This document shows, piece by piece, positions 1,764 to 42,263 of a DNA stretch of 64,000 bases (its first letter is position 1; each line of letters opens with the position of its first letter). The stretch comes from a phage: NCBI GenBank assembly GCA_036930585.1, contig GCA_036930585.1_3066.1. One strand, 5' to 3'. The notes beneath the pieces are model-generated. The model did not search any database. It had not been told where the DNA came from and saw nothing but the letters and a program-made list of their open reading frames with translations. Position numbers and translations under genes: made by a program.

Positions 1764-2562
1764 TATACACCTCATAGAACTTTTCATCAGGAATCCAACC
1801 GCGTTTAAATTCATTAAATGCTCGGCCGAATAATTTTGAATTCACAGTTATATTATTAACTGATTTCCATTTAGCAACTCCCGTTCGTTTATAATGATCG
1901 GGGTCATATTTCGTGACGTACCATTCATATAAATTTGGTATTAATTTTACAGCCTCTGGATTTGTCGCTGATTTATTATACCATGGTTTCGCTTTTTCAA
2001 GTTCAGCTGCTTTTGCAGTAGCAGCAACAGTATTTCCAATACCAACTAATTTTTCAGCTTTAATGCGTGGGTCATTAACATGAAGACGAAAAACTTCGCC
2101 TTTTTCATTTTTAAAGCATGTCATGCCTTTAATTCCAGGAAGCTTAACACCTTTATTAACGCCGCACCATTCCTTTGGGTTAAATGATCCTTTAATTAAT
2201 AAGGCGCATTTACCCGATTTAATACTTCTCATTAAAACTTTATTTTTCATAAAGTTTTTTGACCATTCAGATACTGCTCTTTGATGGTAAATTCTAGCAA
2301 TTTCATATAATTTACTAGAACGTAAATATTTTTCAGTGTTTAACATTCTATTCATCGCATATGCCATTTCACGATTACGATGAATTTTATATAGTAGAAA
2401 ATGTGCTAAAAAGTGTTCACGAAAAGTCAGTTTCACCAAATTTTCTTTATCATCAGAACCTCCCATTGATCTTGGAAGGATATGATGAATTTCACCCTTA
2501 AATTTAGAAACGCGGGTTTTACCCCGCGCTATTAAGTCATTATAGATTTTTTCGTAATTCAC
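1744..2562 (-). CDS. mobA: HNH homing endonuclease (MobA-like), 272 aa, sitting between gene 39 and gene 60
   Basis: HNH motif region EIHHILPRSMGGSDDKENLVKLTFREHFLAHF; overlaps the 3' end of 39 and the 5' end of 60; only GTG available as start (no in-frame ATG near 5' end). Confidence 0.7.
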   Translation of the reverse strand: MNYEKIYNDLIARGKTRVSKFKGEIHHILPRSMGGSDDKENLVKLTFREHFLAHFLLYKIHRNREMAYAMNRMLNTEKYLRSSKLYEIARIYHQRAVSEWSKNFMKNKVLMRSIKSGKCALLIKGSFNPKEWCGVNKGVKLPGIKGMTCFKNEKGEVFRLHVNDPRIKAEKLVGIGNTVAATAKAAELEKAKPWYNKSATNPEAVKLIPNLYEWYVTKYDPDHYKRTGVAKWKSVNNITVNSKLFGRAFNEFKRGWIPDEKFYEVYNEICKN

Positions 2563-4090
2563 CTACTGTTATCCATTTACCATTAATCTGTACTTCATCA
2601 TTTTCATTTACGATAATTGTATCGCCATTTAGTTCGAAAGTAAACCACTCGCCATCTTCTTTTTCTTCAAACGCCTTTTCACCGAGAACTAATCCAGTGA
2701 TTGCGCAAATATCAAACAATTCTTTGTTTTTAAGCATATCAGCATATGACATACCCCAACTGTTGAGAACTTTACCGCGCAATGGATAACCACCATGAAG
2801 TTCTTTATCACGAACATCAATAAGATATCCGATAGCAGAATCACCCTCAGTCAAGAAAAGAGTAGTGTCAGCATCTTTACCGCAAAGATTCGCTTTAATG
2901 TGTTTATGAACCTTAGCTTTAGAAGCCTTTTTAGCTGCTTTAGTTTCTGCTGCCTTTTCTGCCGCCAATTTACGAGCCAAAGCAGCTTCAATAATCGGCA
3001 TTAGAATTGCTTCATTATTTAGAATAGCACGTGAAATCTTTTTAGCATCAAGTTGAATATGACTACGGATTTCACCAAATGGAGAAGTCAAACGCTCTTT
3101 AGTTTGAGAATCAAATCGCATGTTTTTCATATCACGGACAAACATAACGATAGTCAAACATTCTTTAACGCGTGCTTTAGTCACATCAATTTTGAACTTA
3201 CGTTTGATTTGTGGAATAAGGTCTTCACAAATATCATCCATAACACAGTCAATGTGATGGCCACCATTCTTAGTGTGAATGTTATTCACATAAGTTAATT
3301 GACGAAAACCATCCGGTGAACGACCAACCGCAATAGAGCAATTTTCTTGTTCTTGAACGATAGCATGTTCATCATATTGGCGTGCATATTTCTTAAAATT
3401 GCCCTGAACCTTTTTACCATTAAAGGTAAATTGAATATCAGGATAAACTACTGCAAGTGTCTGGAGACGATCTAGTGTAATGTCAAGATAAACTTGGGAC
3501 AGCTCATTAGTTTCAAATGACATAAAATCAGGAATGAAAGTAACACGAGTTCCTTTCCATTTTCCAGGAATAGTTTCCCATGATTTATTTTCCATGCCAT
3601 TTGAACAACGAACTACAATATTATTTTGACCATCACCAGTTTCACCGACAAACATCACAGAAAAAATGTTTGTCAAACTAGAACCAACACCATTCATACC
3701 ACCGGTGACACGTTCTTTATCATCACCAAAGTTACCACCTGCTTTTGGAATAGTCCAGGCAGCAACAGGACCAGGAATTTCTTCACCAGTAGGTGTTTTG
3801 ACCATCGCTTGTGGAATACCGCGACCGTTATCTTCAACTGTTACTTGATTGTTTTTAATAGTAACATTAATTTTATTTGCGAATTTAAACTTAGTACGAA
3901 TACCTTCATCTACTGAGTTATCGATAATTTCATCAATAAGCTTAACAAGACCAGGTACATACTGAACACTTTCCCATTTACCAAACAGAAAGCGCTCATG
4001 CATTTCATTAGCAGAAGAGCCAATATACATGCCGCTACGCTTTTTGATATGTTCAATATCGCTCAGAATTTTAATTTCATTCTTAATCAT
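2540..4090 (-). CDS. 39: DNA topoisomerase II large subunit gp39 (GyrB-like ATPase), 516 aa
   Basis: translation MIKNEIKILSDIEHIKKRSGMYIGSSANEMHERFLFGKW...; GHKL ATPase motifs (VEDNGRGIP); ATG at 4090 preferred over track GTG at 4093. Confidence 0.9.
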   Translation of the reverse strand: MIKNEIKILSDIEHIKKRSGMYIGSSANEMHERFLFGKWESVQYVPGLVKLIDEIIDNSVDEGIRTKFKFANKINVTIKNNQVTVEDNGRGIPQAMVKTPTGEEIPGPVAAWTIPKAGGNFGDDKERVTGGMNGVGSSLTNIFSVMFVGETGDGQNNIVVRCSNGMENKSWETIPGKWKGTRVTFIPDFMSFETNELSQVYLDITLDRLQTLAVVYPDIQFTFNGKKVQGNFKKYARQYDEHAIVQEQENCSIAVGRSPDGFRQLTYVNNIHTKNGGHHIDCVMDDICEDLIPQIKRKFKIDVTKARVKECLTIVMFVRDMKNMRFDSQTKERLTSPFGEIRSHIQLDAKKISRAILNNEAILMPIIEAALARKLAAEKAAETKAAKKASKAKVHKHIKANLCGKDADTTLFLTEGDSAIGYLIDVRDKELHGGYPLRGKVLNSWGMSYADMLKNKELFDICAITGLVLGEKAFEEKEDGEWFTFELNGDTIIVNENDEVQINGKWITVGELRKNL

Positions 4091-4978: not shown

Positions 4979-5392
4979 TTATTCCTTAAAGTGAGCTTTC
5001 AACATCTGATACAAGGACCATGCCTGTTCATCATTTTCAATAGTAACTTTCATTACAGGGAATTTAGATTGATCAGTTATCGGTGCAGATTCTTCCTGCT
5101 CTTCAGCTGCCTGGTATGGATTTTCAACTTCATTAAAGAATTCAGCTTCATTCGATGAAAGCCAAATAAAATCTTCATCCAAAATATCTTTACCAGAAGA
5201 TAGTACTAAATTTCCAGCAAATGACATAATTTTAATAGGACGCCCAAGAGCATCCACATCTAAAATTTTAAAAGGATGCATGCCTAAACGGCGTGCATAG
5301 ATTCCGTTATCAGTATGGTCTTTAATAAAATTTTCTTGAGCTTGTTTATTTTTAAATTGATACCATTTATTAACTTCAAATTTAATAGCCAT
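4979..5392 (-). CDS. hypothetical protein, 137 aa (position of T4 goF/comC-alpha; not verified by sequence)
   Basis: ATG start, TAATG overlap with upstream gene. Confidence 0.55.
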
Positions 5393-5610
5393 TAATAAAT
5401 TTCCTTCCAGTAAGTTGTACCATCTTCAGTGATTTCACGAAATACACCGTAAATTGGTTGTTTATCCCCAACCTTTTCATACACATAAACCGAAGTCAAG
5501 TGAGTAAACTTAGCAGTGTGTTCCTTTTGAACTACTACCAAATCTGGATCGAATAACACATCTTCAAATTCATCATTAGTGCAATTCTGAATAATTTTAC
5601 GTTTCATCAT
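5392..5610 (-). CDS. hypothetical protein, 72 aa (position and size of T4 cef; not verified by sequence)
   Basis: ATG start; gene order. Confidence 0.5.
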
Positions 5611-5707
5611 AATTTCCTCATTAATTGAACATTGGAGCGATGCGTTTCAGAAGAGTAGCAGCACCTTTGGCAAATTTTCCATTTTATTCTCCAAGTTGTT
5701 TTCTGTA

Positions 5708-5746
5708 TCAGTAGTTGATATTGATATAGTACCATAATCAACTACT
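5708..5746. repeat. inverted repeat (11-bp arms cagtagttgat/atcaactactg, 17-nt loop) containing the recurring tatagtacca early-promoter core
   Basis: cagtagttgatattgatatagtaccataatcaactactg in intergenic region. Confidence 0.5.
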
Positions 5747-5779
5747 GATGTATATAGTTTTATGAAAAAATTTTAAACT

Positions 5780-6271
5780 TTATGCATAGCGAGCTTTGCT
5801 GTAGTGTTTAATCCAACTTTCAGGAATGACTTTGTATGTTCCTAAAAATACCGCGTTGTATAACTTAACGCCATCTTCTACCCATTGATCAGTAATGTAT
5901 GCACACATAGCGCGAGTACGCCGAGGAAGTGGTTGTCCACCTTCGATAAATTCAAACTCATAAGGAGCAATGAACTTAATAGCTTGACCGAGTTTCCACT
6001 TAAAGTCTACACCTACATGCGAAGTATCAATCGTTTCAATTCCTTTAGCGGGAACAGCTTTCAAAAACGCAGATTCAAGAAATTTCGCGCGAACATAACC
6101 AAACTGAGGTTTAGACTTTCCATCTTTAGGAATGATACGCACTTTTACTTCAGAATCTTCATCTTTAACGCCGTGTTTAAGCTGAATGCTTACAATTTCG
6201 ACCAATTTTCCTGCTGCTTTAGAACGGGATTTATCAGATACACGAGCAATTTCACCAATATTAATAATCAT
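5780..6271 (-). CDS. motB: MotB-like protein, 163 aa (position/size of T4 motB)
   Basis: ATG start; position after cef-like gene; paralogous C-terminal motif ITDQWVEDGVKLYNAVFLG shared with next gene. Confidence 0.5.
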   Translation of the reverse strand: MIINIGEIARVSDKSRSKAAGKLVEIVSIQLKHGVKDEDSEVKVRIIPKDGKSKPQFGYVRAKFLESAFLKAVPAKGIETIDTSHVGVDFKWKLGQAIKFIAPYEFEFIEGGQPLPRRTRAMCAYITDQWVEDGVKLYNAVFLGTYKVIPESWIKHYSKARYA

Positions 6272-36922: not shown

Positions 36923-36942
36923 ATAGGAGCCGAAGCTCCTAT
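36923..36942 (-). terminator. stem-loop upstream of alpha-gt
   Basis: ataggagccgaagctcctat. Confidence 0.45.
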
Positions 36943-37115
36943 CCGCATAATACACCGTATAGAGGCTCATTAGAGCTTCTAAATTTTATGCGCTTATATT
37001 TTATAGTTCCTTCTGCTTTAGCTTTATCATGAGACTCTTTAAAGAGTCTCATCATTTCCTTTTTAGAGGAACGAATTTTATTATAATCTATTTCAGAAGT
37101 CTGGGTGTTCATCTT

Positions 37116-37319
37116 TCATAGTTGCCACCATTTTTTGACTTGATAGGAATCAACCCACACTTTCATATTAGGGTCTGCTCTTACAATAGGAGGATTAACT
37201 TCTTTAATTGAACTATCGTGGTATTCTTTTTCAGAAATTTTCACACAAAGATGACCATTCAAAGATTCAGTAAATCCTGCATTAATTTTAAGACGCTTGA
37301 ATTTTACGCGTGTAAGCAT
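37116..37319 (-). CDS. hypothetical protein, 67 aa
   Basis: ATG at 37319. Confidence 0.45.
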   Translation of the reverse strand: MLTRVKFKRLKINAGFTESLNGHLCVKISEKEYHDSSIKEVNPPIVRADPNMKVWVDSYQVKKWWQL

Positions 37320-41214: not shown

Positions 41215-41652
41215 TTAATCATGTGTCCACACCCCATCGGTATTTGACCAAAGCCGCTGATTATCTGATCCTCGCCACAGCTTTTTGGTCGGAAGATTTT
41301 TCTCATACTTCCCATCAATAATAACATCAACATATTTAAGCATTTCTAGCTGTTTAATATCTTCAAACTTATATCCTGTCCACAACCAAATGTCTTTCTC
41401 AGGAAATCTTGCTTTAACCCAAGAAACTAAATTTGAAATCTCTTCTCGGTTCTGTGGATAAAGCGGGTCACCACCGGTTAAGGTAAGGCCTTGGATATAT
41501 GATTTGCTTAAATGGGACGCAAGTTCTTTAACGGTATTCATAGTGAATAACTGTCCGTTACGAGCATTCCAAGTACTACGATTATAACAACCTTCGCATT
41601 TATGCAAACAACCTGTAACGAAAAGAACGGTCCTGCATCCAGGGCCATTCAC
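41215..41652 (-). CDS. nrdG: anaerobic ribonucleotide reductase activase NrdG (radical SAM), lacking a canonical ATG start
   Basis: VNGPGCRTVLFVTGCLHKCEGCYN (CxxxCxxC); only GTG at 41652 available; in-frame TAG TAG 7-8 codons upstream. Confidence 0.7.
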   Translation of the reverse strand: MNGPGCRTVLFVTGCLHKCEGCYNRSTWNARNGQLFTMNTVKELASHLSKSYIQGLTLTGGDPLYPQNREEISNLVSWVKARFPEKDIWLWTGYKFEDIKQLEMLKYVDVIIDGKYEKNLPTKKLWRGSDNQRLWSNTDGVWTHD

Positions 41653-41716
41653 AAAGCAGCACGGGATTGTCTACTAGAGAGGTTCCCCGTTTAGACCGGT
41701 TTTACATGAGCCTGAA

Positions 41717-42263
41717 TTAAATTAACTCATACGCCTGGAATGCATCGTATACATCTTTTTCTGTTTTAGATTGGGCATAATTCAATGCATCAGCGATTTG
41801 CCATTTTTCTGCGTCCTCAATATGTTTTGCGTAGGTACGTTTAACATAAGGAGAAAGTACTTTATCTACATTCGCAAAAGTCGTTCCGCCGTATTGGTGA
41901 GAAGCAACCTGTGCAGTAATTTGTGCCATAATTGCAGTAGCAACACCGATTGATTTAGGAGTTTCAATCTGTGCATTACCAAGCTTAAATCCGTTTTCAA
42001 GCATTCCTTTTAAATCTACTAAACAACAATTAGTAAATGGCAATGATATACTGTAATCTAAATCATGGAAATGAATAATTCCGCTTTCATGCGCTTTCAT
42101 AATAAAAGACGGGACCATATTTTTGGCAATGTGTTTAGACACAATACCAGGCCATAAGGTCCCGTTGAGTTGGAAAAACACGAGAATCTTTATTAGCATT
42201 CTCGTTTAAAAGGTCTTTATTAGTTTTATGAATCAATCCTTCAATTTCTTTTTCAATTGTCAT
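41717..42263 (-). pseudogene. nrdD: nrdD (anaerobic ribonucleoside-triphosphate reductase) remnant: only about the first 180 codons, with a +1 frameshift near codon 37 and no C-terminal catalytic/glycyl-radical region
   Basis: frame 1 MTIEKEIEGLIHKTNKDLLNENANKDSRVFPTQRDLMA then stop; second frame continues GIVSKHIAKNMVPSF...IHFHDLDYS...VYDAFQAYELI-stop; homology to NrdD N-terminal region ends abruptly about 65 nt before nrdG. Confidence 0.8.

Follow-up and report, generated by a model that had tools for sequence, protein, structure and literature searches.

The anaerobic ribonucleotide reductase locus of a T4-like phage was found in a collapsed state, which very probably arose through a spontaneous deletion of approximately 1.7 to 2.9 kb between two copies of the 8-bp sequence CCCGTGCT in a Tequatrovirus genome. 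Judged from its sequence, the locus is a defective derivative of the T4-type nrdD(sunY)-nrdG module, and is neither a functional NrdD gene nor a functional member of the group I introns. The particular feature of this case appears to be that the intron core supplies one of the two recombination arms, so that the deletion removes both the intron and its host gene.

Genome setting and organization of the locus

The window, by which the whole stretch of DNA analysed is meant, covers 64 kb of a genome of approximately 168 kb and is a segment of a Tequatrovirus (T4-like) phage. The 24 kb around the locus are collinear with, and approximately 96-97 % identical to, many Escherichia, Shigella and Yersinia phage genomes. 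Gene 49, nrdD and nrdG are all located on the minus strand, and in the order of transcription gene 49 is followed by the start of nrdD, a short non-coding stretch and the NrdG-like frame (41652-41215), beyond which lie homologues of the JB75 genes annotated as putative membrane protein, hypothetical protein and NrdH glutaredoxin. The counterpart interval in T4 consists of gene 49, nrdD (two exons separated by an I-TevII-bearing intron), mobC and nrdG. The endonuclease gene of this interval had been given as mobD in the first-pass annotation and is corrected here to mobC, following the T4 record and the published account, in which mobC is listed as a free-standing HNH gene at the nrdG/nrdD site (PMC2988022, Table 1). 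For the mapping of the deletion endpoints the window was compared with T4 and five closer relatives. The features of the locus are as follows.

42733-42260, minus strand: gene 49 (endonuclease VII), from the open reading frame list and the sequence
42263, minus strand: ATG at the start of nrdD
41725..42263, minus strand: nrdD exon 1 remnant, identified by tblastn with T4 NrdD, Pfam and a check of the T4 splice site
42150..42151, minus strand: +1 C frameshift, GGCTGG in relatives and GGCCTGG here
42135..42137, minus strand: premature TAA, reached from the nrdD ATG after 42 codons (open reading frame 42135..42263, 42 aa)
42041..42061, minus strand: substitution block in nrdD codons 68-74, identical to the Mosigvirus ST0 nrdD allele
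41658..41724, minus strand: 5' end of the nrdD group I intron, 67 nt, identical to the introns of 236Ecol005PP and 215Ecol030PP
41671..41676, minus strand: TAG TAG in the nrdG frame, within the intron core sequence CTCTAGTAGACAATCCCGTGCT
41658..41665, minus strand: deletion junction, where the 8-bp direct repeat CCCGTGCT occurs once, both copies being present in 215Ecol030PP
41215..41664, minus strand: nrdG remnant from codon 8 to the stop codon, 98 % identical to T4 NrdG residues 8-157 by tblastn
41650..41652, minus strand: GTG, the native Val12 codon of NrdG, sequence CAATCCCGTGCTGCTTTGTG

Remnant of nrdD exon 1

The exon 1 remnant is 539 nt long, corresponding to the usual 538 nt plus one extra C, and after correction of the frameshift it encodes NrdD residues 1-179 and the first base of codon 180. 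In tblastn searches, T4 NrdD residues 1-38 matched 42263-42150 at 100 % identity and residues 30-180 matched 42175-41723 at 92.7 %, the second match being in a different frame from the first. Homology to the N-terminal NRDD domain is present, with a Pfam NRDD (PF13597) score of 140.7 bits over model positions 1-141 of 562 only. Residues 181-605 had no match anywhere in the 64 kb by tblastn or by blastn with exon 2, and the window lacks the full barrel that holds the thiyl-radical cysteine, as well as the C-terminal Zn site and glycyl-radical domain (T4 residues 181-605), in line with the first-pass annotation, which had reported the catalytic barrel and the glycyl-radical domain as missing. 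The same annotation had placed the end of the NrdD homology, at ...YDAFQAYE, near 41725 and had read it as a truncation. The position is correct, but it is a natural exon boundary and not a deletion end. In T4, exon 1 comprises 538 nt ending in ...GAGT and is followed by a 1033-nt intron, the excision of which restores a frame of 605 codons, and the NrdD homology ends at ...FQAYE because 41725 is the natural end of exon 1.

The nrdD reading frame is interrupted within the remnant. Translation halts after 42 codons because of the additional C at 42150/42151, where T4, 236Ecol005PP, 215Ecol030PP and JB75 all read GGCTGG; this frameshift was absent from the first-pass annotation. In the 24 kb aligned to JB75, only one further uncompensated frameshifting indel was found in a coding sequence. 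This second one, also a +1 C, is located in a run of C at 37103 (CC to CCC). It interrupts, six codons in, the open reading frame homologous to JB75_0210 (a hypothetical protein of 59 aa; frame at approximately 36939-37119, minus strand), and translation would end after 8 codons. The two insertions are alike in kind, and either both are real or both come from one mode of sequencing error, and the insertion in nrdD could be such an error. The frameshift site also resembles a blend of two alleles, with ATGG-CCGG in Mosigvirus ST0, ATGG-CTGG in Tequatrovirus and ATGGCCTGG in the window, the window thus reading GCC-T-GG versus GCC-GG in Mosigvirus and GCT-GG in Tequatrovirus. Such a blend at 42150-42151 could have been produced by a heteroduplex-repair error during the exchange that left the Mosigvirus-type patch described below, or by a consensus error from mixed templates.

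Intron stump

A spacer of approximately 65 nt ahead of the NrdG frame had been noted previously. The spacer is present, but it is not an anonymous gap: it is an intron remnant consisting of the first 67 nt of the nrdD intron, which run straight into nrdG codon 8, so that the homology to NrdG already begins at 41664. The stump is identical in sequence to the 5' end of a genuine group I intron that occupies the same site in 236Ecol005PP and 215Ecol030PP. The intact intron of 215Ecol030PP scores 70.9 bits against the Rfam model Intron_gpI (RF00028; gathering score 50), and the window stump reaches about position 100 of the 253 positions of this model. In the gathering-threshold run that recovered this intron, 236Ecol005PP (5082-5300) gave no match although its core reads alike, and this negative is probably not reliable. 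No Rfam group I match was obtained in the window, at the gathering score or even at E<=1, because only the 67-nt stump is left. On the Rfam structure line the stump holds paired 5' elements that we take, by general group I nomenclature, to be P1/P2, the 5' strand of P3, P4 and P5; all core elements 3' of it are missing, and in the same nomenclature these are P6, P7 with the guanosine-binding site, P8, P9 and the 3' strand of P3. A complete catalytic core and a 3' splice site are absent from the window, and the stump is predicted to be unable to fold into a ribozyme or to splice. An involvement of mobile elements, suggested in the first-pass annotation, is borne out to the extent that the left repeat of the deletion lies inside the conserved core of the group I intron.

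The nrdD intron exists in at least three states among close relatives, namely an ORF-less form of 479 nt (215Ecol030PP, 1180-1658), a form with a split I-TevII gene (236Ecol005PP, 5345-6116) and a form of 1033 nt with an intact I-TevII gene (T4). The intron-core allele of 215Ecol030PP and 236Ecol005PP is CCCGTGCT, and that of T4 is CCGTTGCT.

A break inside an intron also raises the possibility of a split gene, in which exon 2 and the 3' part of the intron are encoded elsewhere and NrdD is restored by trans-splicing or as two polypeptides. The window represents 64 of the approximately 168 kb of the genome, and precedents are available in nrdA of Aeh1 and in the fragmented nrdD of phiAS4 (PMC3653736). 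This arrangement had been named in the first-pass annotation as the finding that would speak against a deletion, and it was checked over the 64-kb part of the genome, in which nrdD exon 2, I-TevII and further intron sequence were not found by tblastn or blastn. The break is located inside paired intron core elements and outside a loop, the junction runs on into nrdG as in a simple deletion, exon 1 is frameshifted, and nrdD was found at this locus only in every relative examined at the locus; a functional split gene is thus regarded as highly improbable.

Remnant of nrdG

Homology to NrdG starts at 41664, equivalent to residue 8 of T4 NrdG and slightly before the GTG at which the gene had been said to begin. 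This GTG (41652-41650) is, as reported, the first start codon in the NrdG frame and opens a reading frame of 145 aa (41652..41215), and the two TAG codons described just upstream (41676-41671) do lie in the nrdG frame, 18 nt 5' of the GTG. The gene has lost only its native ATG and the first 7 codons, and the frame is otherwise intact. Inspection of the sequence 5' of GTG 41652 revealed no Shine-Dalgarno-like purine run, and a native ATG start that overlaps or is coupled to the preceding gene is absent for nrdG in the window. Relatives in which no endonuclease gene separates the two genes have the nrdG ATG overlapping the nrdD stop codon (ATGA), which suggests translational coupling of nrdD and nrdG. 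The predicted 145-aa GTG-initiated product matches Pfam Fer4_12 at 169.5 bits over model positions 1-136 of 137 and Radical_SAM at 32.9 bits, and the CX3CX2C 4Fe-4S motif is retained in the remnant (GCLHKCEGCYN). The nrdG remnant thus remains open as a frame but is predicted to lack a usable initiation site.

The SHFML-11 record starts its nrdG annotation at an internal Met, giving a product of 108 aa (3573-4043). The full-length frame is present in that genome, with a 5' end identical to that of 215Ecol030PP, and the short gene is an annotation choice and not a truncation.

Probable imported patch and the question of decay

Compared with every Tequatrovirus allele seen, the 21-nt block at nrdD codons 68-74 carries approximately 13 substitutions, among them Ser TCC to AGT and Leu CTT to TTG. 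The mosaic formed by this patch was found in no phage record, the best full-length identity over 76 nt being 82.9 %. Among T4, 215Ecol030PP and JB75, exon 1 shows 0-1 nonsynonymous versus 12-15 synonymous codon differences. Decay of exon 1 as a pseudogene was considered, as the changes I68L, P72I and A73S looked private to the window, but this was rejected because the block matches the functional allele of Mosigvirus ST0, whose nrdD encodes a full-length NrdD. The identity with ST0 suggests that the block is an imported patch of a functional allele, acquired by a very short inter-genus gene conversion.

The nrdG remnant differs from T4 and 215Ecol030PP by 14-17 synonymous and 3 nonsynonymous codon differences and contains zero stops. 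In a dN/dS-type comparison of the remnant, these codon differences were too few to date the deletion. The deletion is probably recent because the 450-nt nrdG remnant has remained without stops or frameshifts and the +1 C in exon 1 is the sole sign of erosion; on the scale of the divergence among these phages, we infer that the event was probably spontaneous and fairly recent.

Deletion junction

The alignment against the T4 nrdG-nrdD region that had been proposed as a check was run, and the deletion endpoints were mapped to T4 45781 and 42886. Position 41658 of the window corresponds to T4 45781 (intron nt 67) and 41655 corresponds to T4 42886 (nrdG nt 31), with 2894 bp missing. The mapping against T4 and the five relatives supports the original reading of the junction as a deletion that inactivated the anaerobic reductase module, and shows that the deletion also cuts into nrdG.

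Copies of the octamer are located in the relatives in the intron core (intron nt 60-67) and in nrdG codons 7-10 (TAC CCG TGC TGC). The introns of 236Ecol005PP and 215Ecol030PP read ...GACAATCCCGTGCT followed directly by AAATG... and are identical to the window up to CCCGTGCT, the 5' end of nrdG in 215Ecol030PP and SHFML-11 reads ATG AAT TAT GAT AGA ATA TAC CCG TGC TGC TTT GT, and the window reads GACAATCCCGTGCTGCTTTGTGAATGG across the junction. The two copies in 215Ecol030PP are at 1239 and 3593, 2354 bp apart. When a deletion between them was made in silico, the product matched the window seamlessly at 239 of 248 nt with no mismatches near the junction, and the mismatches look like ordinary allelic differences. 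On the nrdG side, the 56 nt of the window counted from the octamer are 100 % identical to the intact nrdG of U5, AndreasVesalius, GADU22, KK4 and HZ_ZJUN4, and no untemplated bases are therefore needed. An imperfect microhomology (CCnTGC) with 2-3 untemplated bases, as obtained with 236Ecol005PP as the reference, was rejected, since the nrdG allele in relatives itself reads CCCGTGCTGC.

The junction has the form of a microhomology or short-direct-repeat deletion, with the repeat at both ends in undeleted relatives, one copy in the window and zero filler. The probability that an arbitrary junction would carry 8 nt of microhomology is about 1.5e-5. The corresponding interval of 215Ecol030PP (3.4 kb, 36 % GC) contains 223 direct 8-mer pairs. 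Ranked by nearest-neighbour stacking energy, CCCGTGCT comes first in stability among the 192 repeated 8-mers, being one of only two with six G/C, and it is 5th of the 161 maximal direct repeats, behind four 10-11-mers. The stability of the octamer fits a mechanism that depends on annealing, yet stability alone does not single it out.

No match to the junction was found in phage records, IMG/VR, GTDB genomes or JGI metagenomes, and within the databases searched the junction is private to the genome of the window, a single genome showing the event, and could in principle represent a minority variant. Absence from every other record and contig would also be expected if the real locus were intact and the contig had been misjoined, and the two +1 C indels could hint at sequencing error. 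Such an assembly or consensus artefact, also raised in the first-pass annotation as a refuting possibility, is nevertheless very unlikely, as an 8-bp repeat is far below the k-mer and overlap lengths of assemblers, the junction has the classic one-repeat-copy form of biological deletions, and the 24 kb are collinear with relatives and contain only 2 uncompensated frameshifts in coding sequences. A deliberately engineered nrdD knockout is hardly credible; one end falls within the core of the intron and the other 7 codons inside nrdG, the 8-bp repeat is a natural one, and there is no scar, marker or designed boundary.

Two further genomes were examined as references and not used. U5 was rejected as a model of the pre-deletion state, as it has the octamer only in the nrdG copy, and L006 (IMGVR_UViG_2974742932_000001) was set aside as a close relative because of a palindromic nrdD duplication at its start. 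Positions 1-1005 of the latter contig encode NrdD on both strands, with residues 51-377 forward and residues 178-501 reverse, and are probably an assembly chimera.

Origin of the deletion

In the favoured explanation, a spontaneous deletion, recombination or slipped mispairing would have occurred between the intron-core octamer and the nrdG octamer, with one copy kept. Two routes could lead to the same product, namely slipped mispairing during replication and, where a double-strand break has occurred, annealing of the resected ends. The deletion would have removed the intron from nt 68 onwards, with any I-TevII gene in it, and the whole of nrdD exon 2 (425 codons); in T4 this exon carries the glycyl-radical domain, the Zn site and the thiyl-radical cysteine. 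The content between nrdD and nrdG would have been lost as well, which depending on the ancestor would be nothing, mobC or another endonuclease gene, as would nrdG codons 1-7 with the start codon and the translational coupling to nrdD. The deleted length is given as a range because no record combines the intron allele of the window with its exact nrdG allele.

A more specific trigger would be a double-strand break made near nrdD/nrdG by the homing endonuclease of a co-infecting phage (MobC, the 279-aa AndreasVesalius-type protein or another), followed by resection and single-strand annealing of the octamers. The boundary between nrdD and nrdG is a variable endonuclease insertion site, which is empty in 236Ecol005PP, JB75 and U5, occupied by mobC in T4, 215Ecol030PP, Pinarejo and SHFML-11, and in AndreasVesalius taken up by the gene of a putative endonuclease of 279 aa. 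The distance from this insertion site to the right repeat, inside nrdG, is only approximately 20 nt, free-standing endonucleases cleave near their own insertion sites (PMC2988022), and the Mosigvirus-type patch is a sign of other exchange with divergent phages at the locus. However, the activity of MobC is listed as not determined and its target as unknown (PMC2988022, Table 1), the left repeat is approximately 1.7-2.9 kb away and would require long one-sided resection, and break-induced annealing and replication slippage would leave the same sequence; a break of this kind is considered conceivable but unlikely. The broader reading, in which the deletion would be collateral damage of selfish-element traffic, with a break by a co-infecting endonuclease at the insertion site repaired by annealing of the octamers, is distinctly unlikely. 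If it were true, mobile introns and free-standing endonucleases would be able to purge themselves along with a host metabolic gene, and this would constitute a natural route for the loss of auxiliary metabolic genes in T4-like phages.

Several observations concern the endonuclease genes themselves. AndreasVesalius (Bas42) carries the gene of the 279-aa putative homing endonuclease at 2952-3791, in place of the 210-aa mobC, and the 5' end of its nrdG is the exact allele of the window. The presence of a segH gene between nrdD and nrdG in U5 was considered and discarded, as it found no support in record AY262145. At 1921-2562 (minus strand) the window contains a 214-aa open reading frame that is 30 % identical to T4 MobC and scores 20.6 bits against Pfam HNH (cut-off 21.4), and this is probably a free-standing HNH homing endonuclease gene.

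Predicted consequences of the deletion

With exon 2 lost, the intron reduced to a stump and exon 1 frameshifted, the phage is without a class III (anaerobic) ribonucleotide reductase of its own. From the roles of NrdD and NrdG, its de novo synthesis of deoxynucleotides under anaerobic conditions should rely on enzymes of the host, and the NrdG activase is without a phage-encoded substrate once NrdD is gone. The nrdD gene is dispensable under aerobic propagation, and it is presumably for this reason that the loss has been tolerated. The intact nrdG frame may have been kept through continued expression and an action of its product on the NrdD of the host, which would be a weaker variant of the selfish-element reading given above.

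The spontaneous deletion favoured here is a known kind of gene loss by ordinary deletion, and no new mechanism or system is proposed. It provides a natural phage nrdD knockout, described at base resolution in a T4-like coliphage, nrdD being present in the relatives examined at the locus, and it indicates that a conserved group I intron core can serve as a deletion arm that destroys its own host gene. Some sequenced phages, 215Ecol030PP among them, hold the pair of repeats that predisposes to the deletion. At this locus, annotation pipelines would report a 'short NrdD' together with a 'GTG-initiated NrdG', and neither should be read as a functional gene. The isolate could be used as a natural nrdD-null control for the role of phage NrdDG in anoxic settings such as the gut.

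Comparison with known systems

The closest described system is the T4 nrdD (sunY)-I-TevII intron-mobC-nrdG locus (NC_000866, 42446-46385), which has the same gene order and strand after gene 49 and is homologous in exon 1, the intron 5' end and nrdG, with flanks that are 95 % identical in DNA and NrdG that is 98 % identical. The window differs from it in the absence of 2894 bp, in the intron allele CCCGTGCT and in the nrdG allele (Cys10). T4 is without either copy of the octamer and so could not undergo this deletion. The best model of the pre-deletion state is 215Ecol030PP (PP328843), in which both octamers are in place and the 5' end of the intron is identical to that of the window. In that phage the locus is intact; the intron is ORF-less and 479 nt long, mobC is present, and nrdG differs from that of the window at 8 of the first 50 nt that follow the octamer.

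Spontaneous T4 deletions between short direct repeats in the rII region were reportedly described by Pribnow et al. in 1981 and by Singer and Westlye in 1988. The present case shares with the rII deletions the retention of one copy of a short repeat and a kilobase-scale loss in a non-essential region, and differs from them in that one repeat comes from a group I intron core and the deletion was found in a natural isolate and not under selection. A deletion has also inactivated I-TevIII in the T4 nrdB intron (PMC2988022), and is similar in being a deletion within the intron of a T-even ribonucleotide reductase gene that destroyed the function of a mobile element. The I-TevIII deletion stays within the intron open reading frame and leaves splicing and the host gene intact, whereas the deletion in the window destroys both the ribozyme and the host gene. 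The Aeromonas phage phiAS4, in which nrdD is fragmented (PMC3653736), is likewise a T4-like phage with a disrupted class III ribonucleotide reductase gene; it keeps all coding segments in three pieces, whereas the window lacks approximately 70 % of the gene.
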